A stretch of 64,000 nucleotides of DNA, from assembly GCF_022448665.1 (NCBI RefSeq), contig NZ_JAKUUO010000004.1; one strand, given 5' to 3'. Within the stretch, counting starts at the first letter, position 1, and each line of letters opens with the position of its first letter. This stretch comes from Candidatus Thalassarchaeum betae. Its GTDB lineage: Archaea > Thermoplasmatota > Poseidoniia > Poseidoniales > Thalassarchaeaceae. Below the pieces are notes generated by a model that saw only the letters and a list, made by a program, of their open reading frames with translations, did not search any database and was not told where the DNA came from. Shown piece after piece: positions 8,378-26,101 of this stretch. The position numbers and the translations under genes were made by a program.

Positions 8378-10897
8378 ATGGCCGTACCCCGTCCAGGGGT
8401 CCAAGAGCGGATTCTCCTGCACCTGCGCGATTACATCGATCATGCAGACAAGGTAGAGGTCCCATTCGCTTTGTCCCAGATGGGAATCGCCAACGCTGTG
8501 GCCATAGCCCGCTCCAATGTTCCTCGTGCAATAGCTGGGATGAGGGAGCAGGGGCACCTCATAGAGAGACAGGCTCACGTCACCGGGGTGTCGCGCAAGA
8601 GGAAGGCGTACTTCCTGACCGAGGATGGCGCCAACATTGCCAACGACATCTGGTCCAAGGTCAGTACCCAATCCGTCCGTCTGGTACATCCCGATGGCCG
8701 CTCCGAGACGTTAGAGCTCGCACAGGCTCTCGAGGCGACTGACCTGCCCCTGCGACACGTCGATTTCCTCAGGTACATCGACGACACTGGGACTGTCGAC
8801 CTCTCGACTCTCTCTGCTGAACTGATTGAGAGGGATCTGTCCAAGCACATCGAGAAGCAACTCGTCACCTCGCTGAACGACCTGCCGAAGACCCGCCGCT
8901 TTTTCGGCAGGGAGAACGAGTTGCAAAACATGGTCGCTCTTCTTGAGGACCAGTCGAGCTCCATACTGATACCGGGAATCGCCGGAATCGGGAAGACGGC
9001 TCTGGCCGGCAAGCTGGTTGAGCGCTTCACTCACAGGCGAAACCTGCTGTATCACCGATGCCAGGACTGGGAGGGCTCGAGGGCTTTCCTCGAAGCCATC
9101 TCGGAGTGGCTCTCCGCCATAGGTCACAATGACCTATCGGACTACCTTGCTGCCACTCCGGTGCCTCAGGCGTCGATGGCGGTAAATCTGATTTTCGAAG
9201 GCCTGCAGGACTCTCCTTCGCTGATTGTCATCGACGACCTGCACAAGGTCGGTGACGAGACTCTGATTTCTGCTCTGAGATCCCTCACACTAAAGGTACC
9301 AGAGCTCGATGACGTGGGTCTAGTGATGTTCTCACGCTCATTCAGGATGGTCGTCCCCGAATCGGACTCGTCAGGCCGAATAGTGACGCTAGTCATGCCT
9401 CTGGAGGGTCTAGACCAGGAGTCCAGCAGACAGATTCTGACTGCCATGCCCAATCTAGAGATGGCTCAGTTCCTACACATCTACACTCTGTCCAGAGGAC
9501 ACCCCCTGGTACTGGAACTCATCAATCGAGGAAACGTAGGAGAGACCTTCCACGCGACGCTAGAGGCTTTCGTCGAGCAGGAGATCTTCAGTAGGCTCTC
9601 TGGCTCCGAGAAGAGACTGCTCGGAGCCATCGCTGTGTTCCGCGAACCGATGCCACTGGAGGCTATCATCGGGATCGAGGCTGAGACGGACCTTCTCGAC
9701 AGCCTCGTTGAGAAGGGCCTTGCACGTCAGGCTGACAGTGAGAACTATGACGTCCACGACCTAGTCAGGGAGTTCCTAACCAGATCCATGGACGAGTCGT
9801 TGCGCCAAGAGCTCCATGCCAACGCAACAGTCTGGTACCGATCCAGACACGGCATTGCTGCAGAGAGGATAGAATACATCCATCACCTCAACGAATCCGG
9901 AGACACAGACAGTCTCGCTGAGGTACTCACCGCCGAAGGCCACGGTCTCGTCAGCGCAGGGCACACCGAGCTGCTGGGAATTCTGAGGCCGCTCGAGCGC
10001 GAGGGATTCGGACCCAGAAGCTGGTGCGTAATCAGGGAACTGCGAGGGGATATCCTGTCCATACAGGGACAATGGGACGAGGCCGAGGCCGAGTACAACG
10101 CGGCTGTACCGCTCGCCAGCAAGCACAAGATGAACAGGGTACTCGCCCGCTTGCTGTCAGCTAGGGCCGACATTGCCGTCAAGCGCGGGGCGATGGACGA
10201 TGCCCTTGAGATGCACCGCAAGGCGTTGGAGATCCAGATTGCCTTGAGAGACGCCGTGGGCGCTGCCCGCTCCTACAACAACATGGGCTACATCTACCGA
10301 CGCAGGAAGGACAACCGACATGCGCTCGAGGTGTATGGCAACGTCGAGGACCTACTTGAGGCTGAGGACAACCTCGAGTTGTGCGATGCGCGCATCCGCC
10401 TCGCATCCGCATTCTTGGAGATGGGAGAGCTCGATCGAGCCAGAGACCATGCGATGCTCGCTTTTGAGGAAACTGAGGACAATGGCATGGATATCTACCA
10501 CGCACGCGCCCGAGCGGTCTTGGGGAGTTACTATGCCCGATCGAAGGAGAACGAACTTGCGATGCAGTACTACTCTGGAGCGCTTGAGATACTTTCGGAG
10601 CAAGCAGATCCGAACAGTGCCGTCGAACTTGAGATGCTGCTGGGGCAGGTACTGAGCGACGCCGGTCGCAAGGATGAGGCTGCAGAACACTACCTAGACG
10701 GCCTCGCCCTGGCCGAGGCCAACGACTTCAGGATGCTCCAAGGGGAACTTCTCGCACGCTTAGGGGAGGTCGAGAGTGACCGCTCACAGAAGATGGAGTA
10801 CCTACAGCGCTCGCTATCCGTGTTCAGAGAACTCGGCGCGGTCGACAGGATGCGAGAGGTCCAGACCTCAGTCCACATAGCGGTCATGGGGCACTAG
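8378..10897 (+). CDS. Signal-transduction ATPase. N-terminal winged-helix HTH, then Arch_ATPase/STAND-type P-loop NTPase, then C-terminal TPR repeats.
   Basis: ATG at 8378 is in frame with ORF 8042..10897. The upstream part of that ORF overlaps the preceding gene, so it is rejected. HTH-like segment ERILLHLRDYIDH..FALSQMGIANAVAIARSNVPRAIAGMREQGHLIE. FFGRENELQNMVALLED followed by Walker A ILIPGIAGIGKTALAGKLV, and Walker B SLIVIDDLHKV. C-terminal TPR-like repeats (ARSYNNMGYIYRRRKDNRHALEVY.., HARARAVLGSYYARSKENELAMQYY). Confidence 0.7.
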   Translation: MAVPRPGVQERILLHLRDYIDHADKVEVPFALSQMGIANAVAIARSNVPRAIAGMREQGHLIERQAHVTGVSRKRKAYFLTEDGANIANDIWSKVSTQSVRLVHPDGRSETLELAQALEATDLPLRHVDFLRYIDDTGTVDLSTLSAELIERDLSKHIEKQLVTSLNDLPKTRRFFGRENELQNMVALLEDQSSSILIPGIAGIGKTALAGKLVERFTHRRNLLYHRCQDWEGSRAFLEAISEWLSAIGHNDLSDYLAATPVPQASMAVNLIFEGLQDSPSLIVIDDLHKVGDETLISALRSLTLKVPELDDVGLVMFSRSFRMVVPESDSSGRIVTLVMPLEGLDQESSRQILTAMPNLEMAQFLHIYTLSRGHPLVLELINRGNVGETFHATLEAFVEQEIFSRLSGSEKRLLGAIAVFREPMPLEAIIGIEAETDLLDSLVEKGLARQADSENYDVHDLVREFLTRSMDESLRQELHANATVWYRSRHGIAAERIEYIHHLNESGDTDSLAEVLTAEGHGLVSAGHTELLGILRPLEREGFGPRSWCVIRELRGDILSIQGQWDEAEAEYNAAVPLASKHKMNRVLARLLSARADIAVKRGAMDDALEMHRKALEIQIALRDAVGAARSYNNMGYIYRRRKDNRHALEVYGNVEDLLEAEDNLELCDARIRLASAFLEMGELDRARDHAMLAFEETEDNGMDIYHARARAVLGSYYARSKENELAMQYYSGALEILSEQADPNSAVELEMLLGQVLSDAGRKDEAAEHYLDGLALAEANDFRMLQGELLARLGEVESDRSQKMEYLQRSLSVFRELGAVDRMREVQTSVHIAVMGH

Positions 10898-11703
10898 GCT
10901 GCCTTACCCACTCCCTCAGGCTCCACTTGGCCCAGCCAGTGGCTGAATTCGGGGCCGTCCTGTTTCGAGATTGAAAGGTCACCTGAGAAACGCTCGTCGA
11001 TGTGCAGAAGCACCTCGCTCTCAGCCAGATGTGGGGCGTTGTTCTTCTCAGACAGGTGACAGAGCACGATGCTGTCCATTCCCGGGTGTAGGATCTCGGT
11101 CAGCATCTCAGCAGTCTGTGAGTTCGACAGGTGACCCCCTCTGCCGGAGATTCTCCTCTTGAGCGAGTCTGGGTAAGGCCCGTTCATCAGACGCTGGAGG
11201 TCGTGGTTCGCCTCGACGGAGACGTGGCTGCATCCGCTGAGATGCTTCTTCAACTCAACTGTTGGCTCGCCGAGATCGGTCACGATTCCGGCTCTGCGCC
11301 CGTCTCCGTTGGTGGCGATAACAGCAACGTTGGCAGCACCCTCGTGCGGGACCGGTATCGGAAGCAGACTGAGCTCGTCGGAGACGCTAATCCTGTCCAA
11401 GTCCCCGAAGGTCCTGCACTCGGAGACAGGCTCCCACCCCATCTTCGTCGCCGTCTGGAGATTGGCGTGCAGAGCCGAGTCCCACTTCTTCGCGGCCTGC
11501 AACGCGGAGCGCGAGTGGTCGGAGTGGTGATGAGTGACGAAAATGGCGTCTATCAAAGCCGGCTTGACTCCCGCTAGTCCCAATCTGACCTCCATCTGGC
11601 GCAGCGAGAATCCGCAATCCACCAGAACCAGGGTGCCACCCGATCTCAGTAGCGTGGAGTTGCCTCTGCTGCCCGAGCCTAGATGGGTAATCTCCATTCC
11701 CAC
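10894..11703 (-). CDS. Metallo-beta-lactamase-fold hydrolase
   Basis: N-terminus MGMEITHLGSGSRGNSTLL..LVLVDCGFS. Metal-binding motif FVTHHHSDHS (HxHxDH). Converges on the STAND gene with a 4-nt tail-to-tail overlap. Confidence 0.75.
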   Translation of the reverse strand: MGMEITHLGSGSRGNSTLLRSGGTLVLVDCGFSLRQMEVRLGLAGVKPALIDAIFVTHHHSDHSRSALQAAKKWDSALHANLQTATKMGWEPVSECRTFGDLDRISVSDELSLLPIPVPHEGAANVAVIATNGDGRRAGIVTDLGEPTVELKKHLSGCSHVSVEANHDLQRLMNGPYPDSLKRRISGRGGHLSNSQTAEMLTEILHPGMDSIVLCHLSEKNNAPHLAESEVLLHIDERFSGDLSISKQDGPEFSHWLGQVEPEGVGKAA

Positions 11704-11890: not shown

Positions 11891-14800
11891 ATGCGTCGCA
11901 AGCAGACAGCGCTACTCATGACGATACTGCTCCTGGGCAGTTTGGCTTTCGTCTCGCAGACTCGCCCTCAGTCATCCGTCTCCTCGACCGATCCGATTAC
12001 AGCAGACAGAGGGGGCCCTCCCGTGACCGATGAGGACGGCGACAGGATACCCGATCTGCACGAGTCGATATTCGGAGATGTCAGGTTGATTGATACCAGC
12101 ACAGGTGTGGTCAGCGTCAGGGGATTGGATCCAACTAATGGGACAGACAACATGTCCGATTACGACAGCGACGGCGCCAGTGCCCTCCTCGAGTTTTGCT
12201 GGCCATACACGCTGGATCGGTGTTTCGACAGACTCTCGCTTACCGGTAAGCCGCCCCAATTCACTGATTCCGGCCTTCGGGAGTATCTCGACCCCCGGAA
12301 TGCCGACACCGACGGCGACGGACTGCCCGACGGTTATGAGATTTACATGTGCACTGAAGGGGGTTTGGGCTATCAGAACGCATCCAATGCATGGCAGTGC
12401 TTGTGGTTCGATCCTCTCGACGCCTCTGACTCGACAGAGGACATCGACCGCTGTGAGGACTTCAGTTTCGGTTGCGGTGACGGCTTCGATGTCAACCGTG
12501 ACGGTTTCATCGACATAGGTGAGCGTTACACGAATTCGGAGGAGTACCTCTACGGCATTCCGGAAGACTGGCTGACCGAGAGGGACGGACTGTGGTGTGC
12601 AGGGGAGATTGCGGGACTCAGCCCCGATTCATGTCAGGGTGATATCGAGAGAGCTACCGGGGACAACGGCTGGCTCGGAAGCGACCCTACTGAGCCGGAC
12701 TCGGACTACTACACTTGGTCGGAGGTGATTGCTATCGGACTCGCCGTTCCCGGAGATGGGATACCTGACGGCTGGGAGGTTCACTACGGCTTGGACCCAC
12801 GGAACTCCAGTGATGCCATAGAGGACACCGACATGGATGGATGGGACCTCGACAGAGACGGCTTCCTGATTCCTGACATCTCCACCTCGACCGCCCACTG
12901 GGGCGAGGCATTCAGCAACTACGAGGAGTACATGGTACACTTCGACGACGGTGCTTGGGTCACTCCCGGACTAAGGGGCGCCCCTTCCTCGCAATCCGAT
13001 GGAGAGGTGATTTCATTCGACCAGAGCACGAGCCCCGGGCTCGTAGATGGAGCAGTCCATACCGTACTGTCCGACTCTGCGAGAGACAGGCTGCTAATCG
13101 GCTCAAGATACGGAATCACCGTCATCGACCCATTCGAGGGCACATCATCGCTGTACCAGCTGCCATCGGGAATGGAGATGCACACCATGATGCGGTGGTC
13201 TCCGAGTGACTCCGACTTCCTGCTTGTCGGCTCCAATCTAGGGTTGCACTGCATCACTCTCGACAACGGACTTCCTGTGATGGAATCAATGTCCGAGTCG
13301 GACATAGGGCCCATTGAGGACATCTACGCCCTGCAGACGGGCAGCGGCGACCTCGATCTGATTTTGTTCGGCAAGGGCTTTGCCACTTGGACAGTCACGG
13401 TGAGGGACCAGGGAGAGGACCAGGACGCTATGGTGGGCGAGCCCGAGTACAACGATGAGATGGCCGACACGCTGTCAGCCGCCGACGCCGAGATCAACAC
13501 GGCCTTGCATGTTCAGATGGATGGCCGAGGCCCACTGCTACTGGTCGGGACCGATGCCGGACTCGTCGCTTGGAATACCACCGACGGCTCGGCCTCCGCC
13601 GGCGACCCATGGTGGGTCTTCGACCGTGAGAACGCAGAGGACTTCGTTCAGCGTGCCGACCTGCTGAACGTCTCTAAGTCCGCCGTAGTCAACGCGCTAG
13701 TCCTCGCTGGCCCCTTGGATGCTGCAGGGGGCGTAGAGGAGGTTACCGGCATCTGGGTCGGCACCGCTGGTGGACTGCACCTGCTAGACCTCGATCTCCT
13801 GATTCAGATGCCATACTCGGCATTCGACTCCGACAGGATGTACAATATCGAGAGGTGGGCAGAAGGGGCCAATGATATCCGCTCAGTACTGCCGATGAAC
13901 GACATGGTAGTCATCGGTTCCAGAGACGGGTCATGGTGCCTCGAGGGCGGCCATTCGGGTGTCCTCGGTTTGTATCTCAACCAGACTAAGATACCCGGGC
14001 TGATAACATCCCTGACCACTCTGGAGCACGGCGGGAACCTGTGGATATTCGCAGGCGTCTCGCCGGGCCGTTACATGAATATCATGCCAATCGACCCGAC
14101 ATCCTTTGATTCGGACCTCGACGGAATGCCCGACGGCTGGGAGTTCGTCTATGGACTCGATCCAACCGACCCCCACGACCGCTACCGCGACGCCGACGCC
14201 GACGGAGTCCACTTCACCTCCGCTGACGGCTTCGAGTTCGACAGGGACTGGACCAACTTGGATGAGTATAGATACGTATCTACCACTGATAACGGCTTCA
14301 ACGGAACCGACCCGAGAGACATAGACTCGGACGGCGATGGACTCACCGATGGCGAGGAGTACTGGGGCTGGTTCGCCGACTCTACCGAATTCGACTGTCA
14401 CTACCTCAATGACGAGTATATCTGTGACGAAGACACCGGCGCACTGGCAGAACAGGTCCACCTGGAAGGGTGGCTGGGCTCAGGCGCGGGCGGAGGAACC
14501 GATGGCCCCACTGACCCGACCAACCCAGATACCGACGGTGACGGGATGCCTGATGGCTGGGAGATGGAGCATCGCAGGTGGGTAGGCGATGCTTACAACG
14601 GCGGCAACCTCTGGACCCTGGACCCGAGGGATCCTACGGACAGGGACGAGGATGCCGACGGCGACGGGCTCAGCAATCTGTGCGAGTACATGTGGGGGAA
14701 CCTGCTCGAAACGGTACTGCGCGAGGGTCTGCCGACGCATGGGGAGACGGCCGAGGCTGCAATCAATTGGACCAAGACTGATCCCAACGAAATCGATTCT

Positions 14801-17611
14801 GACGGCGACTCCCTGCCCGACGGCTGGGAGGCCCGTTACACCTGCACGTGGAACAAGGACAACTCGGGAATCAACCCGTTGAACGGCTCTGACTACCTCA
14901 ACAACCCCGACGGCGACGGATTCGACGTCAACCACGATGGAGTACTCGACCTAGAGGAGAGTCTGGTCAACTGGCTTGAGTACCACCTAAAGTCCGAGAT
15001 TCTGTATGGCGACCAGACCGCCTCGGGCATGGCGTTCCCAGAGAACTTCACCACTCTGCTGTGGAATGAGACCTGGCTCAACTTCGCAGACGATTCGTTT
15101 GGCCACTTCACCAGCCCTGCTTACCGCAGCCTGGTTAACGGAACCACTCCGCGAGATGTCGGTTCCGCCAATCCATTGAGCGCTGACTCCGATCGCGACG
15201 GTATGCCGGACGGATGGGAGTTTTTCTACGCAAGATGGAGCCTGTTCGACGAGCAGTGGACGCTCAACCCCGTTGACGAGAGGGATCGACTCGGAGACCC
15301 CGACGGCGACGGGATGAACAACTGGGAGGAGTACAACGTCATCGATGGGAACCTCAGCGAGACCGACGAGCTGATTACCGTACCGCAGTTCTACCTCCTC
15401 AGAGTCGGCGGCGAAATACTCGCTTCGCCATGGCTCTCTGCCGAATCCGCTTCCTCATTCGGCATGTTCCTGTCTGACGAGCAAGTCAACAAGAGCGGGA
15501 GGACCGCCGATCCAAACAACCCCGACACCGATGGCGATGGTCTGCTCGACGGCATCGAACTGATATTCACACGTTGGAACTCGACGGACGAGGTCTGGAC
15601 ACTCAACCCCCTTGTCGCGGGTGATGGGAACTACGACTCGGACCGCGACGGCATCACCGACCTCGTCGAACTCAATCTGACTCATAACAACCCGGCCAAC
15701 GGCGGGCTATCACCGCCCGACGCGCCGCGTATGTGGGAGGAGGCTGAGCAGCTTGATCCCGATGAGGCCGTGAACAGAGTCTACAGAATCCTGTTCAACA
15801 AGGAGGGCAGGGCTGAACTCGCCATTGCGCAGTTCCAGGAGTGGCAGCAAGGCATGCCCGCCAAACCGGTTATCTCAGCGCTGCTAGGGGCCGCGGATCC
15901 GAATGCTGAGGACACCGACAGGGACGGTATGAGCGACGGCTACGAATACTGGTTCACAGAGTGGGACCTCGAGGAGAATATCTGGGAGATGAACCTCCTG
16001 ACCGACAGTGACATCCACGCGGACGCGGACGACGACTCTTTCGACTGCAATGGCGACGGCCACATCTCCGATTCCGAGTCCTATGACAACCTCGCCGAGT
16101 ATGACGCTAGAGTCTACGGCAAGCGTTCCGCCATCGACACCATCCCCAACGGCACAGGCCTGGTATCCTACGGCGCCGACGCGGTCACCGCGCAGATTGA
16201 CGAGAACGGGATGTCGTACGAGGCCGCCTTCGGACAGTTGTACGTCATGTTCTCCACCAAGAGCCTGGTCTCAGCAGAGCGCGCCGGCCTGATCAACGAG
16301 ATTGACCCTGACACATTCAACTACAGCTTAGCCGGAGTAAGTGACCCGACAGACGATGACTCGGACAGGGACGGGATGCCTGATGGCTGGGAGTTCTGCT
16401 ATTCCATCTACGGCGAGTTCCTCCCCGTCAACGCGTACCGCTGGTCGATGAACCCAATCAACCCCCTCGACATCGCTTACGATCCCGACGCCGACGGCTG
16501 GTATGACAGGACCTGGGGGGATGCCCCGGCCGAGCAGGGTACTTGGGAGGACAGGCAGTTCACACCTGCGCCGGTGGACCAGCAGATCGGACAGGGCTTC
16601 ATCGGTCTGTACTTCAGCAACCTGATGGAGTATGATAACGGCACGCATCCTCTTGACCCCGACACCGATGACGATTCTATGGTGATGGAACCGATTATGC
16701 AGAATGGCGCCGTCATCGACTATGTCCAGAACACCAATCTGTCGGACGGCCGTGAGGTGTTCAAGTACGGCACCAACCCGCTCGACAACGACACTGACGG
16801 CGACATGATGCCCGACTTCTATGAGTACTACAGGGGATGGAACGAGGCCAATGACAATTGGTCGTCCTATCTCAGAATCTCAGTGGTGTGGCAGCAGATT
16901 ACCGCGACCAACTTGAAGCCGGTCAACATCTCAGGCGCCAACATAGCAAGGCCCGACTTGGACTGGGTTTGGTTCACTCATGATGCGACCGACCCGTCCG
17001 ATGCCGGCCAAGACGCCGACAACGATGGCGGTTGGGACTGCTCCAGCGGCAACTGCGTCTATGTCCCGTACAACAATTTCCAGGAGTACTACGGCCTTGT
17101 CAACGCCTCCCTCGCCTCCCCAACACTGGTCAGGCAGGCAAACCTCTACGATTGCTCGGGCAACATCGTCCAAGAATGGTGGCAACTGCGCGAGTCCCTG
17201 CTGGGTACTTGCTCGGGCAGTGCGGCACTCGCGTCCAACTACTTCCGCATGTACAGGGTGAACAACGCCGACATGCTCTATGCCCTGATTGTGAAAGACA
17301 ACGATGATCACTATGAGGACATCGACACCAGTGACGACGAAGTCATGGTGAACGGCGCTTGGGCCGACGAGTACCACAGATTCGCCGGCGATCAGTACCA
17401 TTTGCCGAACACTGGCTTGGGTGAGTACGTCTACGGATGGTGGATAATCGACATCGACGGCGATCAGATTGCCGATGGCACCGATCCGACCAACTGGGAT
17501 ACCGACGGCGACTGGCTGAACGACTTCTTTGAGATCGAGGATGACATGCTCGATGGCGTCCGTGGTAACAGCGGCTCTCCCATCAGGTATGACGACCGGA
17601 CAACGTCGTGA
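11891..17611 (+). CDS. Giant (1906 aa) secreted calcium-binding protein with about 18 thrombospondin type-3-like repeats (DxDxDGxxDxxE). Sec-type signal peptide, no C-terminal TM.
   Basis: Signal peptide MRRKQTALLMTILLLGSLAFVSQT. Repeats read directly: DPRNADTDGDGLPDGYE, DPTNPDTDGDGMPDGWE, DPNNPDTDGDGLLDGIE, DDDSDRDGMPDGWE, NDTDGDMMPDFYE, WDTDGDWLNDFFE and others. The C-terminus IRYDDRTTS is not hydrophobic. Confidence 0.75.
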   Translation: MRRKQTALLMTILLLGSLAFVSQTRPQSSVSSTDPITADRGGPPVTDEDGDRIPDLHESIFGDVRLIDTSTGVVSVRGLDPTNGTDNMSDYDSDGASALLEFCWPYTLDRCFDRLSLTGKPPQFTDSGLREYLDPRNADTDGDGLPDGYEIYMCTEGGLGYQNASNAWQCLWFDPLDASDSTEDIDRCEDFSFGCGDGFDVNRDGFIDIGERYTNSEEYLYGIPEDWLTERDGLWCAGEIAGLSPDSCQGDIERATGDNGWLGSDPTEPDSDYYTWSEVIAIGLAVPGDGIPDGWEVHYGLDPRNSSDAIEDTDMDGWDLDRDGFLIPDISTSTAHWGEAFSNYEEYMVHFDDGAWVTPGLRGAPSSQSDGEVISFDQSTSPGLVDGAVHTVLSDSARDRLLIGSRYGITVIDPFEGTSSLYQLPSGMEMHTMMRWSPSDSDFLLVGSNLGLHCITLDNGLPVMESMSESDIGPIEDIYALQTGSGDLDLILFGKGFATWTVTVRDQGEDQDAMVGEPEYNDEMADTLSAADAEINTALHVQMDGRGPLLLVGTDAGLVAWNTTDGSASAGDPWWVFDRENAEDFVQRADLLNVSKSAVVNALVLAGPLDAAGGVEEVTGIWVGTAGGLHLLDLDLLIQMPYSAFDSDRMYNIERWAEGANDIRSVLPMNDMVVIGSRDGSWCLEGGHSGVLGLYLNQTKIPGLITSLTTLEHGGNLWIFAGVSPGRYMNIMPIDPTSFDSDLDGMPDGWEFVYGLDPTDPHDRYRDADADGVHFTSADGFEFDRDWTNLDEYRYVSTTDNGFNGTDPRDIDSDGDGLTDGEEYWGWFADSTEFDCHYLNDEYICDEDTGALAEQVHLEGWLGSGAGGGTDGPTDPTNPDTDGDGMPDGWEMEHRRWVGDAYNGGNLWTLDPRDPTDRDEDADGDGLSNLCEYMWGNLLETVLREGLPTHGETAEAAINWTKTDPNEIDSDGDSLPDGWEARYTCTWNKDNSGINPLNGSDYLNNPDGDGFDVNHDGVLDLEESLVNWLEYHLKSEILYGDQTASGMAFPENFTTLLWNETWLNFADDSFGHFTSPAYRSLVNGTTPRDVGSANPLSADSDRDGMPDGWEFFYARWSLFDEQWTLNPVDERDRLGDPDGDGMNNWEEYNVIDGNLSETDELITVPQFYLLRVGGEILASPWLSAESASSFGMFLSDEQVNKSGRTADPNNPDTDGDGLLDGIELIFTRWNSTDEVWTLNPLVAGDGNYDSDRDGITDLVELNLTHNNPANGGLSPPDAPRMWEEAEQLDPDEAVNRVYRILFNKEGRAELAIAQFQEWQQGMPAKPVISALLGAADPNAEDTDRDGMSDGYEYWFTEWDLEENIWEMNLLTDSDIHADADDDSFDCNGDGHISDSESYDNLAEYDARVYGKRSAIDTIPNGTGLVSYGADAVTAQIDENGMSYEAAFGQLYVMFSTKSLVSAERAGLINEIDPDTFNYSLAGVSDPTDDDSDRDGMPDGWEFCYSIYGEFLPVNAYRWSMNPINPLDIAYDPDADGWYDRTWGDAPAEQGTWEDRQFTPAPVDQQIGQGFIGLYFSNLMEYDNGTHPLDPDTDDDSMVMEPIMQNGAVIDYVQNTNLSDGREVFKYGTNPLDNDTDGDMMPDFYEYYRGWNEANDNWSSYLRISVVWQQITATNLKPVNISGANIARPDLDWVWFTHDATDPSDAGQDADNDGGWDCSSGNCVYVPYNNFQEYYGLVNASLASPTLVRQANLYDCSGNIVQEWWQLRESLLGTCSGSAALASNYFRMYRVNNADMLYALIVKDNDDHYEDIDTSDDEVMVNGAWADEYHRFAGDQYHLPNTGLGEYVYGWWIIDIDGDQIADGTDPTNWDTDGDWLNDFFEIEDDMLDGVRGNSGSPIRYDDRTTS

Positions 17612-18120
17612 GCGCAGACTGCATTCATGTGCCACGACTAGCTCCGGCAGCCATGGCAGACGACGCGCTCCCGGCCCCGGACTCACCGGTCGAGGAGCGA
17701 CTGCTATTCCTACAGGAGAACATGGTCAGTTTCACCACCCAGTTCAGCATGCCCATCGTCGAAGTCTCACTGGTTCTCTCGAAGTACATTCGGATACTCC
17801 TCGAATCACTCGAGACAGCAGCCTCCCGGAACGACGAGGAGCTGCCTGCGAGACTCACTGAGACGTGGGAGGTGGACGTCGAAGGCGAGGCCCCGGGGAT
17901 TGACTCGTTCCCCCTCGAGACACTCCTAGGCAGTCTTGATGAGGACAGGATGGATATTCTTGATACCCTAATCAGGACTATTCTGAACGAGACTCGTCTG
18001 CCGTTCGCACCTGCTTTGACGCTACTCAGGGAGTGGGAATCGATGGTTAGGGTGCAACTGACCAACGCCAGCGGTCCCGGGCAACTGTTCAGCCCAATCG
18101 AACTGCCTGAAGGCTTCTGA
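17608..18120 (+). CDS. Small acidic hypothetical protein, translationally coupled to the TSP3-repeat gene (GTG start overlaps its TGA stop)
   Basis: GTGA overlap at 17608..17611. GC3-rich frame. Alternative ATG at about 17653. No recognisable motif. Confidence 0.4.
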   Translation: MSADCIHVPRLAPAAMADDALPAPDSPVEERLLFLQENMVSFTTQFSMPIVEVSLVLSKYIRILLESLETAASRNDEELPARLTETWEVDVEGEAPGIDSFPLETLLGSLDEDRMDILDTLIRTILNETRLPFAPALTLLREWESMVRVQLTNASGPGQLFSPIELPEGF

Positions 18121-18152
18121 ATCTGCGAGAATTAACATCACATTCGTGATTA

Positions 18153-18485
18153 TCAACTGTTTTCTGCTTTAGCGACAATGCCGCTGGAAACCCACCAGGC
18201 GTCCGCAATGGACCAGACGAAGAGGACGGGCCAGAGAACCACTGACAGAATCAGTGGCAGTTGGATGACGAACCAGCCGAATCCTTTGCTGTGTTGCCGG
18301 TTGAAGTGCTGGCCGAGGAACAGGAAAGGGACCAGGGACAGTGCCAGAGCCACAAGAGGCCGCAGAGTCCCCCACGGTCCGATTCCCCCGCTCAACTCGT
18401 TCCAGATGACACCGACGACGCCTAGGGCACTGGCTCCTCCCGGCTCCTCGTCTGGTACGACACTCACCGCGTACTCCTCTGCCAT
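18153..18485 (-). CDS. Small hypothetical membrane protein (2-3 TM helices)
   Basis: Hydrophobic segments LVALALSLVPFLFLG and FVIQLPLILSVVLWPVLFVWSI. It occupies the gap between neighbouring genes. The overlapping + frame 18178..18507 looks non-coding. Confidence 0.35.
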   Translation of the reverse strand: MAEEYAVSVVPDEEPGGASALGVVGVIWNELSGGIGPWGTLRPLVALALSLVPFLFLGQHFNRQHSKGFGWFVIQLPLILSVVLWPVLFVWSIADAWWVSSGIVAKAENS

Positions 18486-18507
18486 CAGTCGGCCACCCTA
18501 TGTCGCG

Positions 18508-19575
18508 ATGCATGAATCTGACGCCGACAGGCTCGGCGAAAAGGCGAACAGCACCTCTCGACACCGATGCCACGTGGGCGAGCCGCGAATCCTTGTCACG
18601 GCATTCCCGCCGTTTTCCGATTTTGAGACCAATGTCTCTCAATCCGTCTTGGAACGGCTCCATGTTGACGGTATTGATGGACTAGACGTGGTTACGTGGA
18701 TGCTGAGTGTCGACGAGGCCGGCTCAGGCGCTGTGGCTGCTGAAATCAGAGCCGGCATCGAGGTGGATGGCGTACTCCACCTCGGCCTTGCTGCTGGGAG
18801 GACGGGAATATCCCTAGAGAGGATCGCTCGCAACAGGTACTCGATGACAGAGCCTGACAACTCAGGAAGGCTGCAGGAGTCCGGCAGTATCGTTCTCGGA
18901 GGCCCTGAGACGCTGGAGACGACGGCCCCACTCCACATTCTGGATGAGGAGTTCGAGCATGACACCGACGTGCAGTGGAGCGATGACGCGGGCGGCTATG
19001 TGTGCAATGAGACCATCTACAGGACGCTGAATGAACTGCAAGCCAGCAGCGGGCCCGCATTGCCCGCGATATTCGTGCATCTGCCCCCCGAGAGCGAAGT
19101 CCCGCTCGAAGATCAGGTAGCGGCGGTAATCAGAATCGCCAATTGCTTGGTCACCAGACCTAGGTATGAAGTCGCAGCTGCACTGCTTTTCGACGATCAG
19201 GGGAGAATACTGTCGTGCCGCAGGCCCAATGGGGACGCATGGGGTGGCTGGTGGGAGTTCCCAGGAGGAAAGATCAATCCGGGCGAGGATGCTCCAGTGG
19301 CACTGCTCCGCGAACTTGAGGAGGAATTGCGAATATCCCCCGAGCCCAAGGAAAAGGTCGCTCACATCGACTACGACTACGATGACAGATCTGTGAGCCT
19401 GCAGATATGGAACTGCGGAAGCATCGAGCCCACGTCGATCACTCTCGTCGAGCACGATTCGGCTCGTTGGCTATCACGAGACGAACTGCTTCAGGTGAAA
19501 TGGCTACCGGCAGACCTCCCGATTATCGAGAAATGGTCCCAAGAGGGCCTACCGGAGCCTAGTCTTCTCCGCTAG
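18508..19575 (+). CDS. Fusion protein: pyrrolidone-carboxylate (pyroglutamyl) peptidase I (C15) N-terminal domain plus NUDIX hydrolase C-terminal domain
   Basis: C15 motifs ILVTAFPPFSDF (compare the canonical ILVTGFEPF) and DAGGYVCNETIYR (catalytic Cys context). Nudix box GGWWEFPGGKINPGEDAPVALLRELEEELRI (GX5EX7REUXEEXGU). Start is the ATG at 18508, in frame inside ORF 18178..19575. Confidence 0.75.
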   Translation: MHESDADRLGEKANSTSRHRCHVGEPRILVTAFPPFSDFETNVSQSVLERLHVDGIDGLDVVTWMLSVDEAGSGAVAAEIRAGIEVDGVLHLGLAAGRTGISLERIARNRYSMTEPDNSGRLQESGSIVLGGPETLETTAPLHILDEEFEHDTDVQWSDDAGGYVCNETIYRTLNELQASSGPALPAIFVHLPPESEVPLEDQVAAVIRIANCLVTRPRYEVAAALLFDDQGRILSCRRPNGDAWGGWWEFPGGKINPGEDAPVALLRELEEELRISPEPKEKVAHIDYDYDDRSVSLQIWNCGSIEPTSITLVEHDSARWLSRDELLQVKWLPADLPIIEKWSQEGLPEPSLLR

Positions 19576-20071
19576 TGGGGTTTCCCTTGCGGTCAAACCA
19601 CTCGACAGGCTCACCGTCATCAGACATCGCCAAATCGTCTCCAACGCTGCGTGGAATCGAGTTGCGACCGGCGTGCCAGGTTTGCTCCTCGAGCCAGACT
19701 GCCAGGTTCTCTCCAGTCAGGCCGATGCGCATTTCCCCGCCAATCGCCCTCTCATCGATGACGAATGAGACCTTGCCGGCCAGAGCAGCCTGTCTCGATA
19801 GAGCGAATCCAGTCGAGTCGCCTTCGAGTTCCATTGTCATAGCATCGAGGGCAGTATCGAGGATTCTCTGGTTCCTCGCAGACTCTAGCAGCGTGTCCAA
19901 CGACTCGGCAGAGCCGGTGATCAGGACACCCCCTCTCTCGTTCGGGAACGCCGCGTTCTCAGGAATGCGGTCGGGCACCCAGTCCGGGAAGACGGCCTTG
20001 ACCGAATCCACAACCTTCGTTGCATCCTCGTGCGGTTGCACGACAGTGGACACACTGACGAGGGGCGCCAT
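19559..20071 (-). CDS. Conserved archaeal hypothetical protein, possibly UPF0201/PF01877-like RNA-binding family
   Basis: The N-terminus MAPLVSVSTVVQPHEDATKVVDSVKAVFPDW resembles the V-x-V..V-x-PTED..KV...lFP start of that family, from memory only. GC3-rich frame. Convergent with the Pcp-NUDIX gene. Confidence 0.45.
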   Translation of the reverse strand: MAPLVSVSTVVQPHEDATKVVDSVKAVFPDWVPDRIPENAAFPNERGGVLITGSAESLDTLLESARNQRILDTALDAMTMELEGDSTGFALSRQAALAGKVSFVIDERAIGGEMRIGLTGENLAVWLEEQTWHAGRNSIPRSVGDDLAMSDDGEPVEWFDRKGNPTSGED

Positions 20072-20132
20072 ACCTTCTCGTAGGGGCTGTCTGACATGAG
20101 TCCTCTGCCCCGACTCGCTCCCGTGAGCGCGA

Positions 20133-20906
20133 ATGATTCAAACGATGGGCGAAGGGGCCGGTTCCATGGCACAGCGGTCGCCGATGCTCGGAGCAGCACT
20201 CCTCTTGGCTCCAACTATGTGCGTGATAGCGCTGCGCTACGGCCTACCGGCTATCGACGAACTCCTCTCCGAGGATGATACGATGATGTACTCGGTTCAT
20301 GCAGCGGCTCTTCTAATCGGGGTTGTGATGTTCATGAGGTACCGAAAGGTCGAGGATCACGAGTATCACCGCTCCAAGGCGATACGCAAACTCTCCCGGA
20401 CCTACTCCAAGGAGGACAGGGGTCTTTGGGAGAAGGGCGAGGCGGCGATTGAGCGGCTCGAAGCGAAGGCCAGCGAGCCCCGGACCGGAAGGGCGGCGCT
20501 GGAGACGCAGGCACTCAAGTCAGGAACCGTCGGTGCCCTGAACACAGAGCGCTCCGAGGAGGAGATTCCCGAAGATGACCCTGAGCCGCAAGCCATGACG
20601 CAGGTCACCGGAATGAGTACGATGGTGGATGAGCAGGCGATAGCCGAACCCAAAGCTCTTGGATTCCTCTCTAGAATGTCCAATTCCATCAACAGCAGAA
20701 TGGACGCATCTGCCCAGCGCCGTTTGGAGAAGCGCTCTGCCAAAGCAGCGGCCAAGAAGGCCTCCGCGAAAAGCGACTCGGACTCCCAATGGGCGGCTCC
20801 GTCCGCCTCGTCTCTGGCCCGCTCAGTCGTTTCCTGCGCCTCCTGCGGGGCACTGAACAACTCGGGCGCACCCTACTGCACCTCATGCGGCGACTTCCTC
20901 TCCTGA
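20133..20906 (+). CDS. Membrane protein with two N-terminal TM helices, a long charged linker and a C-terminal zinc ribbon
   Basis: TM segments LGAALLLAPTMCVIAL and AAALLIGVVMFM. C-terminus CASCGALNNSGAPYCTSCGDF (CxxC..CxxC). Confidence 0.5.
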   Translation: MIQTMGEGAGSMAQRSPMLGAALLLAPTMCVIALRYGLPAIDELLSEDDTMMYSVHAAALLIGVVMFMRYRKVEDHEYHRSKAIRKLSRTYSKEDRGLWEKGEAAIERLEAKASEPRTGRAALETQALKSGTVGALNTERSEEEIPEDDPEPQAMTQVTGMSTMVDEQAIAEPKALGFLSRMSNSINSRMDASAQRRLEKRSAKAAAKKASAKSDSDSQWAAPSASSLARSVVSCASCGALNNSGAPYCTSCGDFLS

Positions 20907-22109: not shown

Positions 22110-24254
22110 CTAGTCACTCCAGTCAAGAACTCTGTTGGGTACAGCCGCCAGCGGCTGACCGCCAACCAGACCAGAGAGCTGGAAGCCTAGACTGGATGGG
22201 TTCCCTTCCAGAGTCAGGCTGAGGAACATTTTGCTGTCTGCCGGCATCTTATCGAGGAATATCTCGTCCCCTTGGAAGAGGCGGCTTGGGGAGACTGCGG
22301 CTATTCCGACCTTGGCCCCCTCTGGTGCGTGGATCCTCATTGCGGCGAGTTCCCAAGGCTCGTCAGCCACTCGTATTCCCAAGAGCAGTGTTGCATCACC
22401 TTCGCTGATTCGCCAGACGCAGATTTCAATCTGTTCGGTCATGTGGCGCAGTAATGGCTCGCCCCAGTCCTGCACGACAGCCCTCCACGGGCTGTCGCCC
22501 ATCTGCCGAAGGGCGTATTCGACCTCGCTCTCGTCGACTGTCTCCTCGGCCAGAGCCTCGGCCAGCCTCTCACGCAGGCGGCGAAGCCTGCGACGCTCGT
22601 GCTCCTCGATATCCGAGGCGAGAGGAGCGCCGCTGAAGATCGCCCCCCTGTTCCACCAGATCACCAGTAACAATGGGGAGAGCAGGAAGATTCCCGCAAA
22701 GATGTAGAAGTTCTTAGCGCGGTAGGACAAATCCAGGTATTCCCCCCTCTCAGGCTCGTAGGGTCCGTTGTAGGGCAGAGAGAAACGGTATTCGACAGTC
22801 TGATTCGTATCTCCTATCTCGATTACCAACGCGTGGGTTCCGGGAGGCACTATCATCATCGAGCCGTCAGTGGAGTTCTCGACATCCCCCGTCTCCTGAT
22901 TGAGAGTCAGAAGTCGGTATGACGCCGCTGAGTCACCTATCGTGTCGACGCGTACGTACGAACCGTTCTCCTCGGTGATGTTGAATGCGAAAACATCGAC
23001 GAAGTCCCCCGGTCCGAGGTTGCCTTGGAACGAGGGCGGGCCGAGGGTCAGTACCTGCCACCACTGGTCCAGTTCGCCCGGCGCCCAAATGATGTCAGGA
23101 GCGTCCCCGACGAGCGAACCGTCGCCAGAATCGTCGGCCCTCAGGCTGATGCCCCATGCTATCGCCCCTACGGAAGTAATCCTGAATTCGATCGATTCTG
23201 TCTGTTCAGTGGTCTGAATCGAATCGGGACATGAATATGCGTTCTGAGTAACGACGACCGTCGAACCATCGCGCTCATGGAGCACGATGTCCAGATTCAC
23301 GGCCCCTTGACCACCCGTGAACATGCAATTCGGCTCGATGTGCATCTTGGGCCCAGAATCGATTAGCAATGAGTCGCCTTCAGGATCCTCGCCGGCGATG
23401 TGCCCGTAGTAGAGGAGCGAGGAATGACCATAGAAGGGAAGGGGATTGCCGTGAGTCCACGGGTTACTCAATTCGCCGCCTCCGGGAGCCTCCGTGTCGT
23501 CGTCATAGCGTATGACTTCGAATTCGTAAGGAGAATAGTCAGCTTCAGTAGCGTGAACCAATCGGAGCCAGAGATCCCCTTCCGGAGGGTAGTCGAAGTA
23601 ATGGGATTCGAGTTCATCAGAGGAGATGCTTTCGAGAAGAATCTTGGAATCCGTGTTTCTCTGCCATATCTCCATGTTCATCTCTTCCGGCCCTCTCAGG
23701 CTGTTGAGCAGCATAACGTCACCCGCGTCGCCTACTATGCGCAATGCGTCCTTGTCGCTCAGGTTCTCTAGCGCGCCGACGTAGAGCACACCCTCTGACA
23801 ACAGGTCGATTGCGGCGCAGTGGTGCAACTGGCACGGCGAAACAGTGTCGATCTGAGGGTACTCCCCCTGTGCACCAGGGGGCGGTACGATGTTTGGTAG
23901 GTCGTCGTACTCTGTCCAGTCCTCCTGCCAACTCATCACCACTTCGAGGTCGAGGTGGGCCACATCCGTACCGTCCTCGGCCAGCAACGCCCAGGAGACG
24001 GTTTCGTCGACCCAGCCTGCCCACTGGACGTGATGGGAGTCAGAATGGCTCGTCTCATTGGCGTCTGCTGTAACAACGAGTTCCATTCCCGGACAACTAA
24101 CCTCAGTGCACGTCACGCTAATCCACACTGGCCCGCTAGTGCTGAACGAATCATCGCGCAGGATTACCCGGTCGTCATCCTGCGCCGTAGTGCAGATGCT
24201 GAACGCTGAGAGCGTCAGAACCACTGCCAAGAGCCACGTTCGCACGCCTTGCAC
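22110..24254 (-). CDS. Hypothetical type-I membrane protein. Signal peptide, roughly 500-aa ectodomain, one TM helix, roughly 170-aa cytoplasmic domain.
   Basis: N-terminus MQGVRTWLLAVVLTLSAFSICTTAQ. Internal TM FYIFAGIFLLSPLLLVIWW followed by a charged coiled region EEHERRRLRRLRERLAEALAEE. Confidence 0.6.
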   Translation of the reverse strand: MQGVRTWLLAVVLTLSAFSICTTAQDDDRVILRDDSFSTSGPVWISVTCTEVSCPGMELVVTADANETSHSDSHHVQWAGWVDETVSWALLAEDGTDVAHLDLEVVMSWQEDWTEYDDLPNIVPPPGAQGEYPQIDTVSPCQLHHCAAIDLLSEGVLYVGALENLSDKDALRIVGDAGDVMLLNSLRGPEEMNMEIWQRNTDSKILLESISSDELESHYFDYPPEGDLWLRLVHATEADYSPYEFEVIRYDDDTEAPGGGELSNPWTHGNPLPFYGHSSLLYYGHIAGEDPEGDSLLIDSGPKMHIEPNCMFTGGQGAVNLDIVLHERDGSTVVVTQNAYSCPDSIQTTEQTESIEFRITSVGAIAWGISLRADDSGDGSLVGDAPDIIWAPGELDQWWQVLTLGPPSFQGNLGPGDFVDVFAFNITEENGSYVRVDTIGDSAASYRLLTLNQETGDVENSTDGSMMIVPPGTHALVIEIGDTNQTVEYRFSLPYNGPYEPERGEYLDLSYRAKNFYIFAGIFLLSPLLLVIWWNRGAIFSGAPLASDIEEHERRRLRRLRERLAEALAEETVDESEVEYALRQMGDSPWRAVVQDWGEPLLRHMTEQIEICVWRISEGDATLLLGIRVADEPWELAAMRIHAPEGAKVGIAAVSPSRLFQGDEIFLDKMPADSKMFLSLTLEGNPSSLGFQLSGLVGGQPLAAVPNRVLDWSD

Positions 24255-24316: not shown

Positions 24317-26101
24317 ATGCCCGAGCGGCCGCTGGCCCGAGGTGTTGCCGCACGTCACCGATTCGGCAGACTGATGTCGCTCGGAGACAGGAATCAGCCC
24401 TCAGCATGGACCCCGGGGCTGGTATTGGATCCCCGGGACCCCGAAATGCCCCTCGCCTTGGCCCCGTTCACAAGCCTCAGGGAGGGGAATTCCCTACCTG
24501 CTGGAATCACCCTTTCGACACGTGCCAACCTGTGTTACCCATTCGACACTGAGGACACTTGGCAGGCGGTCGAGGGCCTAGTGCTCCCTCCAAGCCTCGC
24601 CGAGGCTGATTCGGGTGAGTTCGGTAATGGCTCGCAGGTACTCCCTGTGTCGTGGCAGGCGATGCATCACGACCAGAGTCTCAACGATACCGAACTCGAA
24701 CCATCGGTGGTAGTCTTGGTAGACGCGCCGCAACTGACTAAGCGACCGGGTATGCTCGTCGATGCACTCGACGCGCTGAGGGTGAGATTCCCGTCATCGC
24801 TGCTGTGGACCCCCGGAATCGGCGGTCCCGACAACTGCGCCATGCTAGTTTGGATGGGAGCGGATCTGTTCGATCTGGCGCGTTCGAGGCACGCTTCCTC
24901 GTTAGGCGTCCTCCTATCTGAGGAGGGACCCAGGGAAGTCGAGGAGACTGTGAGTGAGAGCGCGGACATGGATGCCCAATGCGCAGCTTGGACTCGTGCC
25001 CTCGCAGCCACTAGGGCCGCGATCAGGAACGGCTCGCTGCGCGAACTCGCCGAGCGTCAGAGCACCTCAAGCGCTCGCTCGGTAGAACGACTGCGTCGTC
25101 ACGATGCAAAGATGCGGGGGTACGACGGCGGACGCGCCGGTTTGGCAAGAGTAGTAGGCAGTGAGCACACTCTCAGGTGCCATACCTACACCAGCCGCGA
25201 CGACCCGCTCATACACGATTGGCGCAACAGGGTCGCTGACCAGCACGAGCCCCCAGAGCACCAGCGCGACGCACTCGTCCTGCTGCCCTGCTCGGCCACC
25301 AAGCCGTACAGAATCTCCCAGAGCCACAAGAAGTTTCTCAGGTCTCTGCAGTCTAATGGAATTCATCAGGTGATGGTCACGGCCCCTCTGGGACTGGTAC
25401 CTCGAGAATTGGAGGAGATATGGCCCGCGGCGAACTACGACATACCAGTGACCGGCGATTGGGACTCCGACGAGATCACTGTAATCCGCGACATGGTCAC
25501 GCGCTTGGCGACGAGAGTGGGGTATTCGCGAATCATCAACCACTCCGGAGTCGCAATTGAGGTCGAAGGCACCGAAGTCGTCAACACTCGAAACAGCGAT
25601 TCTGCCGGCTCACAGGAGGCGTTGGAGCGCTTGGAGTTGGAAGTTAACCGTGCCGCTGATGATCTGAAGTTGCCAAATCCGAAAACAGGTCATAACAGAC
25701 TGGCTCAGTTGCGGGCGTTGTCTCGATTCCAGCATGGTACCGACGTTTGGCTCGAAGACGCCTCCGTCCTAGGCCGCCCGCCTATATTCACCATCAAGAA
25801 GGAAGGAGTGCAGATCGCGCAGTGGAATCCACGCACAGCCCGCTTCGCCTTCTCGAAGTCCTGTCTACCATTGCTTGACTCCTGCAACGCGCTGCCCCGA
25901 GTATCTCTCAAGATTGGGGTTGATTGGCACGGGGACTTGTTTTCGACGAATGTCGAGAGCGCTGAGGAAGGAATCAGAGCAGGAGACGAGGTGCTGGTCA
26001 TGCAAGACGGTGGACTGGTAGGCTCGGCACGTGCCGAAGCACCCGGGTGGGAGTGGCCCGATGGCCCCGGCAGACTGGCACGCGCACAGCACCGCCTGTG
26101 A
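24317..26101 (+). CDS. arcS: Archaeosine synthase ArcS-like protein (tRNA-guanine-transglycosylase-related, with PC-x3-KPY motif and a C-terminal PUA-like region). Start uncertain.
   Basis: LLPCSATKPYRIS matches the PCX3KPY(S) motif reported for ArcS. Length of about 590 aa fits. The true start may be an internal Met such as MSLGDRN. Confidence 0.55.
   Translation: MPERPLARGVAARHRFGRLMSLGDRNQPSAWTPGLVLDPRDPEMPLALAPFTSLREGNSLPAGITLSTRANLCYPFDTEDTWQAVEGLVLPPSLAEADSGEFGNGSQVLPVSWQAMHHDQSLNDTELEPSVVVLVDAPQLTKRPGMLVDALDALRVRFPSSLLWTPGIGGPDNCAMLVWMGADLFDLARSRHASSLGVLLSEEGPREVEETVSESADMDAQCAAWTRALAATRAAIRNGSLRELAERQSTSSARSVERLRRHDAKMRGYDGGRAGLARVVGSEHTLRCHTYTSRDDPLIHDWRNRVADQHEPPEHQRDALVLLPCSATKPYRISQSHKKFLRSLQSNGIHQVMVTAPLGLVPRELEEIWPAANYDIPVTGDWDSDEITVIRDMVTRLATRVGYSRIINHSGVAIEVEGTEVVNTRNSDSAGSQEALERLELEVNRAADDLKLPNPKTGHNRLAQLRALSRFQHGTDVWLEDASVLGRPPIFTIKKEGVQIAQWNPRTARFAFSKSCLPLLDSCNALPRVSLKIGVDWHGDLFSTNVESAEEGIRAGDEVLVMQDGGLVGSARAEAPGWEWPDGPGRLARAQHRL

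Follow-up and report, generated by a model that had tools for sequence, protein, structure and literature searches.

The 64,000-nucleotide stretch of DNA from Candidatus Thalassarchaeum betae that we analyzed (hereafter, the window) carries on its + strand a gene in which an intact pyroglutamyl peptidase I-like (Pcp) domain of the Peptidase_C15 family is joined to an intact Nudix domain. This fusion is a real single gene. Its product is probably one cytoplasmic polypeptide with two independent predicted activities, one of them that of Pcp and the other the hydrolysis of (deoxy)nucleoside triphosphates ((d)NTPs). The gene most likely spans positions 18574..19575 (333 amino acids plus the stop), as judged from the open reading frame (ORF), from a start that is conserved across related loci, and from the two Pfam domains. 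Residue numbers herein refer to the 355-amino-acid product counted from an alternative annotated start, ATG 18508.

The uncultured Marine Group II archaea (Poseidoniales) rank with the most abundant archaea of the surface ocean; the main lifestyle attributed to them is the degradation of proteins and peptides. In the full-text literature, we found neither a Pcp-Nudix fusion described nor any account of C15 peptidases in this group. In public records, the protein goes by “NUDIX domain-containing protein”, “8-oxo-dGTP diphosphatase” or “hypothetical protein”, and the peptidase half has been missed. The precomputed annotations of Pfam already show the pairing, however, and both domains are canonical. 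The domain architecture is undescribed but unsurprising.

The fusion is a single gene

The original prediction described a Pcp domain and a Nudix domain in one uninterrupted, GC3-rich frame, and it recognized that a frameshift or stop at the domain junction would undo the proposal. In the translation of the window, the + strand frame is open without interruption from ATG 18508 to the TAG at 19573-19575, and the motifs that had been cited in support of the two domains (ILVTAFPPF, DAGGYVCNETIYR and GGWWEFPGGKINPGEDAPVALLRELEEELRI) are all three found there. The G+C content at third codon positions (GC3) is 0.66 for the whole gene, 0.67 for the Pcp half and 0.63 for the Nudix half. There is no compositional break at the junction. 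Since the adjoining genes have values of 0.67-0.74, the gene is GC3-rich only moderately.

We checked the junction by comparison across genomes rather than by read coverage. Both Pfam domains are present in all 120 listed 90%-identity protein clusters, which are 46-93% identical to the query, and hidden Markov models (HMMs) purpose-built for the half-domains confirmed their two-domain status. At the level of 50% identity, 149 representatives (P0121-P0269) were newly listed beside P0056, and 45 of the 149 carry both domains. Further, a scan of one genome per GTDB species, taking the best 80 of at least 594 pattern-seeded matches, yielded 60 Poseidoniales loci, and in about 50 of these assemblies both domains lie in one uninterrupted ORF; the search of related genomes that the original prediction had proposed thus recovered the same fusion many times. 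The fused loci extend to ~30% identity and come from both the Thalassarchaeaceae (Marine Group IIb) and the Poseidoniaceae (Marine Group IIa). Where the divergent fused clusters are named, they are assigned to Thermoplasmatota, Poseidoniales or Euryarchaeota. By this comparison, the window derives from an archaeon of Marine Group IIb. Among sequences of nameable origin, the fusion was seen only in Poseidoniales and related Thermoplasmatota.

Synonymous sites are saturated in most pairs of sequences, and few estimates of the ratio of non-synonymous to synonymous substitution rates (dN/dS) are usable; where an estimate of dS was possible, each half had a dN/dS of 0.07-0.24. Both halves are therefore under purifying selection. 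All of this bears on whether the fusion is an artefact, two neighboring genes having been run together through a mis-assembly, a frameshift or the loss of a stop. The ORF is found uninterrupted in about 50 genomes that were assembled independently and in more than 120 protein clusters, and dozens of these assemblies have neither a frameshift nor a stop where the domains meet; codon composition does not shift from one half to the other, and purifying selection acts on either side of the junction. For these reasons we rejected an artefactual origin, which has next to no chance of being correct. The protein is also abundant in public marine metagenomes. The characterization of it as an unusual bifunctional protein therefore stands in part: it has two domains with both active sites intact, in a pairing that is undescribed, but it is hardly a rarity.

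The peptidase and Nudix halves

The Peptidase_C15 domain comprises residues 27-218, including a C-terminal helix (18586..19161, + strand), and is delimited by matches in Pfam, in the Protein Data Bank (PDB) and in Foldseek. Pfam Peptidase_C15 (PF01470) matches residues 27-196 (E = 1.4e-20) with 74.6 bits against a gathering cut-off of 22.7, and the match spans profile positions 2-171 of 204; the Pcp identity that had been proposed for the N-terminal half is borne out by this score. A triad of Glu, Cys and His defines peptidase family C15 (PMC12445089). Among solved structures, it is the Pcp entries 2ebj, 6ltq and 1aug that the Pcp half matches in sequence, and the triad residues line up. The catalytic Glu104 (in LERIARN; codon 18817..18819, + strand), the nucleophile Cys166 (in GGYVCNET; 19003..19005, + strand) and the catalytic His191 (in FVHLPP; 19078..19080, + strand) fall on the LER, CN and HLP motifs in the alignments to 2ebj and 6ltq, their counterparts in 2ebj being the Glu of LERLAVN, the Cys of SYLCNQ and the His of FLHLPP. 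A Pcp-like half devoid of these catalytic residues had been envisaged as the other way in which the proposal might fail; the triad is present, and it is invariant in 63/63 Poseidoniales sequences. Also conserved are the aromatic residues of the TGFxPF segment (F33 and F36) and the Pcp motifs DNSGR and GxF/Y-V-CNE.

The closest known peptidases are the Pcp I or pyrrolidone carboxyl peptidase enzymes (MEROPS clan CF, family C15) of Thermus thermophilus (2ebj), Bacillus amyloliquefaciens (1aug) and Pyrococcus furiosus (1iof). They have the same fold and the same aligned triad, and the PDNxG(R) and GxF/YxCN motifs are common to them and the fusion protein. The characterized Pcp enzymes are stand-alone proteins of ~190-220 amino acids that reportedly form dimers or tetramers, whereas the C-terminal Pcp helix of the fusion protein continues into the Nudix domain. 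Further, the fusion protein is only 24-37% identical to the solved Pcp structures, and its Pcp half, although its best NCBIfam matches are the models of pyroglutamyl-peptidase I, misses their cut-offs (TIGR00504, 79.2 vs. 201.75; the subfamily model PRK13197, 86.1 vs. 199), as it does those of the equivalog models PRK13194-6. By these scores, the Pcp half is a divergent member of C15 and not a certified equivalog of pyroglutamyl-peptidase I.

Such divergence would fit a Pcp half that has turned to another N-blocked or cyclised amide substrate, or one whose main role is that of a scaffold on which the Nudix domain oligomerises. A Pfam score of 74.6 bits, NCBIfam scores of 79-86 bits where the cut-offs are ~200, and the low identity to solved structures are all consistent with an altered substrate. 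The invariance of the triad argues against it, as would the nature of the presumed substrate pocket. The pyroglutamate (pGlu) pocket of B. amyloliquefaciens Pcp is reportedly formed by the hydrophobic residues Phe10, Phe13, Phe142 and Val143 (Ito et al. 2001). With the offset given by the alignment to 1aug, these positions map to F33, F36, Y164 and V165. F36 is kept in 63/63 sequences, and all 63 have F or Y at position 164 and V, I or L at 165; aromatic residues at 33, 36 and 164, followed by an aliphatic one at 165, have been kept at the presumed pocket positions. As for a scaffold role, the Pcp domain persists alone where the Nudix domain has been lost (see below). We therefore consider both variants of this explanation unlikely.

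Database matches revealed other proteins that contain a Pcp domain, among them a fusion to a class-I methyltransferase (P0188, 444 amino acids) and tandem or duplicated Pcp proteins (P0168, 603 amino acids; P0199, 512 amino acids).

The Nudix domain, of the MutT/NudG type, comprises residues 219-350 and ends with a WLPAD motif (19162..19557, + strand; Pfam, NCBIfam, PDB and Foldseek matches). Pfam NUDIX (PF00293) matches residues 222-336 (E = 2.6e-18; 66.8 bits vs. a gathering cut-off of 21.1) and NUDIX_4 scores 65.6 bits against a cut-off of 35, the two together covering residues 222-341. Both of the HMM searches that had been suggested, for Peptidase_C15 and for NUDIX, hence end above the Pfam gathering cut-offs. 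The consensus of the Nudix box, which includes catalytic Glu residues, is GX5EX7REUXEEXGU; here, residue conservation identifies it as G254-X5-E260-X7-R268-E269-L-E-E272-E273-L-R275-I276 (19267..19335, + strand). G254, E260, R268, E269, E272 and E273 occur in all of the 50-51 sequences that cover this region. The box is thus the textbook one that had been described, with its catalytic residues present and only the penultimate Gly of the consensus replaced, by Arg275 (codon 19330-19332). This position is non-catalytic, and across the family it holds G in 26/50 sequences, E in nine and S in five, as well as N and D; it is therefore unconstrained here.

The best NCBIfam matches of the Nudix half are PRK08999, NudG and MutT, but the cut-offs of all three models are missed (MutT, TIGR00586, 73.9 vs. 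97.9; NudG, NF007834, 76.2 vs. 156; PRK08999, 104.9 vs. 245). Its closest solved relatives by sequence are 5x1x (“MutT”), 3r03 and E. coli NudG/Orf135 (2rrk), with which it has a C-terminal “PAD(L/I)P” motif in common. The Nudix box and its WEFPGGK context are shared with the MutT/NudG group at large (2rrk; MutT, 1mut; 5x1x; 3r03; and Mycobacterium smegmatis MutT2, 5zrc), and the P-A-D-hPhh C-terminal motif of NudG (APADIP in that enzyme) is present as well. The fusion protein is distinguished from these enzymes by its peptidase, by the Arg in its Nudix box and by scores that fall under the equivalog cut-offs. Asp336, which is part of the WLPAD motif, presumably corresponds to Asn119, the residue with which E. 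coli MutT reads 8-oxoguanine. In the family, this position is D in 46/49 sequences and N in 3/49, and the APAD of NudG likewise has Asp. This presumed equivalence points towards a NudG-like rather than a strict MutT specificity. From these comparisons, the Nudix half appears to belong to the MutT/NudG group of (d)NTP pyrophosphohydrolases, being assignable to the group and not to a specific enzyme, and it does not appear to be an ADP-ribose-, CoA- or NAD-type enzyme of nucleoside-diphosphate-X (NDP-X) conjugates.

MutT-type modules are joined to unrelated enzymes elsewhere, as in HAD-Nudix (P0220) and 5-FTHF cyclo-ligase-Nudix (P0195) proteins. PRK08999 (“Nudix family hydrolase”, 315 positions) is matched by the fusion protein over its Nudix part only, at model positions 5-127. 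In all of these architectures the partner and the domain order are different, and none contains a C15 peptidase.

An AlphaFold2 model, built from an alignment of 76 sequences, is a compact two-domain structure with high confidence (predicted local distance difference test, pLDDT, 94.1; predicted template-modelling score, pTM, 0.83). In a Foldseek comparison with solved structures, the Pcp half matched 34 Pcp chains with target-normalised template-modelling (TM) scores of 0.76-0.83 over ~200 alignment columns, and the Nudix half matched enzymes of the MutT, NudG, MutT2 and BdRppH types with scores of 0.80-0.89, normalised in the same way; for the MutT/NudG structures, the scores were 0.85-0.89. 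The Pcp fold is complete in the model, its last helix included. None of the solved structures spans both halves, the best query-normalised TM score being 0.53. In both the model and the alignment, the last Pcp helix (residues 200-215) leads through a short R/K-P turn directly into the first Nudix strand, and there is no flexible linker.

Nudix loss and the predicted activities

Nine species of Poseidoniales (loci L041, L045, L047, L048, L051, L052, L053, L058 and L065) have a Pcp-only gene of ~200 amino acids in the same syntenic slot, with the match at about 6001-6590 in most of these loci. The Pcp-only proteins end directly after the C-terminal helix, and the PF01877-like gene that neighbors the fusion gene (see below) directly follows the shortened gene. 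In a tree of the Pcp domain, the Pcp-only sequences nest within the fused IIb clade, with the fused L021 among them. The simplest reading of this pattern is that the domains were fused once, in the ancestor of Poseidoniales or earlier, and that the Nudix domain was later deleted cleanly in one or two sub-lineages of IIb. Because all nine Pcp-only proteins keep the triad intact, we take the peptidase to work without its Nudix partner. Only three positions of the Pcp domain, T139, D146 and E147, are conserved in the fused IIb proteins and changed in the Pcp-only ones; these are too few for a conclusion regarding an interface.

The nearest named stand-alone relatives of the two halves are bacterial: pyroglutamyl-peptidase I for the one, and (deoxy)nucleoside triphosphate pyrophosphohydrolase for the other. 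We also compared the Nudix domains of loci L061-L080 with those of L030-L060, by HMM scores and a crude neighbor-joining tree. The IIb Nudix domains were nearer to bacterial NudG-like proteins (Bacteroidales and Treponema; 105-132 bits) than to the fused IIa and basal ones (50-127 bits), in a tree that is distance-only and midpoint-rooted and with a bacterial sample selected by a pattern derived from IIb, GWWEFPGG. Two independent fusions are not to be concluded from this tree, given the biased bacterial sampling, the midpoint rooting, and a junction and synteny that are shared. Rate acceleration in IIa or a replacement of the domain could account for the closeness of the IIb and bacterial sequences.

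We infer the substrates, the cytoplasmic location and the independence of the two activities; a signal peptide is not obvious on reading the fusion sequence, which is why the protein is presumed to be cytoplasmic. In the favored mechanism, Cys166, activated by His191 and Glu104, would remove N-terminal pyroglutamate from peptides. Peptides blocked by pGlu otherwise resist aminopeptidases, and this step would unblock them for those enzymes in protein-degrading heterotrophs. The Nudix box would bind Mg2+ and hydrolyse (d)NTPs to the (deoxy)nucleoside monophosphate plus pyrophosphate. Its likely substrates are canonical or damaged (d)NTPs, and most likely non-canonical, excess pyrimidine or oxidised nucleotides; the domain would thereby serve in the “house-cleaning” of the nucleotide pool. 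Most plausibly, the genome is a streamlined one in which the fusion serves to express two “clean-up” enzymes together. The two modules appear to be separable, because the nine nested species have lost the Nudix domain yet keep an intact Pcp at the same locus. The original prediction had allowed for two activities that are simply co-regulated, and it is this alternative that best fits the separable modules and the MutT/NudG type of the Nudix half.

Several points weigh against such independence. The NCBIfam scores of both halves are far under the equivalog cut-offs, and the substrates could differ from those proposed. The compact model, without a linker, also fits a fixed interface of functional importance, and the positions T139, D146 and E147 might mark that interface. 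Finally, the long-term retention of the fusion throughout the order hints at a selective advantage beyond chance.

These same observations lend some support to an obligatory coupling, in which the domains would act sequentially within a single pathway or on a single molecule (such as a compound that carries a nucleoside diphosphate together with a 5-oxoprolyl or other lactam or amide group) or would communicate allosterically. The single architecture conserved across the whole order, with its short and rigid junction, is what coupling would lead one to expect; so is a confidently predicted compact model (pTM 0.83), and so are positions 139, 146 and 147, whose conservation is confined to proteins that have the Nudix domain. 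Non-canonical substrates are conceivable where both halves score under the equivalog cut-offs. However, the Nudix domain alone has been lost in nine species that keep a triad-intact Pcp at the same locus, and the Nudix half resembles plain (d)NTP pyrophosphohydrolases, not the ADP-ribose- or CoA-type enzymes that act on NDP-X compounds. Both types of domain pair with other partners elsewhere, and no syntenic neighbor suggests a pathway shared with either domain. To our knowledge, there is no metabolite of this kind that combines a lactam and a nucleoside diphosphate. We consider coupling of this sort improbable. The substrate bearing both a pyroglutamyl-like lactam and a nucleotide-diphosphate moiety, which was the first idea put forward in the original prediction, fares poorly in view of the MutT/NudG-type Nudix domain, the loss of that domain in nine species and the promiscuity of both partners.

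A related idea holds that the rigid body is a single unit, in which the two sites would process one conjugate (a nucleotide-linked, N-blocked or cyclised amino acid or peptide) or in which one domain would gate the other. The chance that this is so appears slim. If true, it would tie peptide catabolism to the control of the nucleotide pool in the most abundant planktonic Euryarchaeota.

Gene start, locus and implications

The end of the gene, at 19575, is as originally given, but the start most likely lies at GTG 18574, rather than at ATG 18508. The position aligned to this GTG is ATG or GTG in most of ~60 related loci. In the nearest relatives (L001-L006 and L008), the GTG is the sole candidate start detected upstream of the domain, and in one close relative (L001) a stop codon closes the frame upstream of it. 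ATG 18508, for its part, falls within a conserved non-coding DNA motif. We place the start at GTG 18574 because of the alignment of starts across loci, the upstream stop in L001 and the location of ATG 18508 inside this motif.

The motif is bipartite, consisting of ATGAATCTGACG, ~14 nt, and then CGAAAAGGCGAACA (18512..18549, with no strand assigned). It is found 25-62 nt upstream of GTG 18574, within the intergenic region that separates this codon from the divergent - strand gene ending at 18485. Across the Marine Group IIb loci it has the form ATGAAT[C/A]TGAC[G/T], ~14 nt, then CGAAAAGGCGAACA, and it occurs only once in the 64-kb window. The IIb loci that share it vary widely in GC content and read it in different frames, and a stop closes the frame around it in L001. 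Because the frames differ between loci and that of L001 is closed, the conservation is at the level of DNA; the motif also accounts for the spurious in-frame ATG at 18508. The motif may represent the back-to-back core promoters of leaderless divergent transcripts, or the site of a regulator.

The fusion occupies one syntenic slot in the genomes of Marine Groups IIa and IIb. Upstream, the recurring order is a giant secreted-looking protein (+), a 170-amino-acid ORF (+), a divergent 110-amino-acid protein (-) and then the fusion gene (+). Downstream follow a convergent PF01877-like gene of 170 amino acids (-), a zinc-ribbon/DUF7577 protein and DnaJ. One further fused protein cluster shows the same neighborhood. 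The divergent neighbor (18153..18485, - strand), syntenic in essentially all related loci, has no Pfam match; from its sequence, it looks like a putative membrane protein. The convergent neighbor (19559..20071, - strand), also syntenic in related loci, is similar to PF01877 (RNA_binding) with a score of 26.6 bits, slightly under the cut-off of 26.9, and its 3' end and that of the fusion gene share 17 nt (19559-19575).

The giant protein (11891-17611, + strand) has 1906 amino acids, is very rich in Asp and has an N-terminal hydrophobic segment. Many repeats of the DxDxDG type (e.g., DTDGDGxPDGWE) are present in it, similar to the calcium-binding thrombospondin-type-3 repeats. Pfam returned no match at E<1e-4. 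Most IIb loci have this protein, with 45-86% identity, upstream of the fusion gene. Elsewhere in the window are a 594-amino-acid protein with DUF5591 (24317-26101, + strand; E = 8e-40), a protein of the metallo-beta-lactamase fold (10894-11703, - strand) and a 713-amino-acid ORF with no Pfam match (22110-24254, - strand). An Rfam scan of 17500-20300 returned SECIS_3 within the coding region, which we rejected as a chance-level match (E = 0.49; 19.8 bits vs. a gathering cut-off of 63).

The fusion, order-wide and apparently of single origin, offers a clean, synapomorphy-like marker of the lineage. The annotation of the protein can be corrected by the addition of its peptidase half. Further, for a group that is uncultured, the protein offers a simple target for heterologous expression. 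Were the two activities to prove coupled, a new metabolic link would come to light. If they instead act independently, which the evidence favors, the protein would exemplify the fusion of house-keeping enzymes in a streamlined genome, followed by the loss of a domain.

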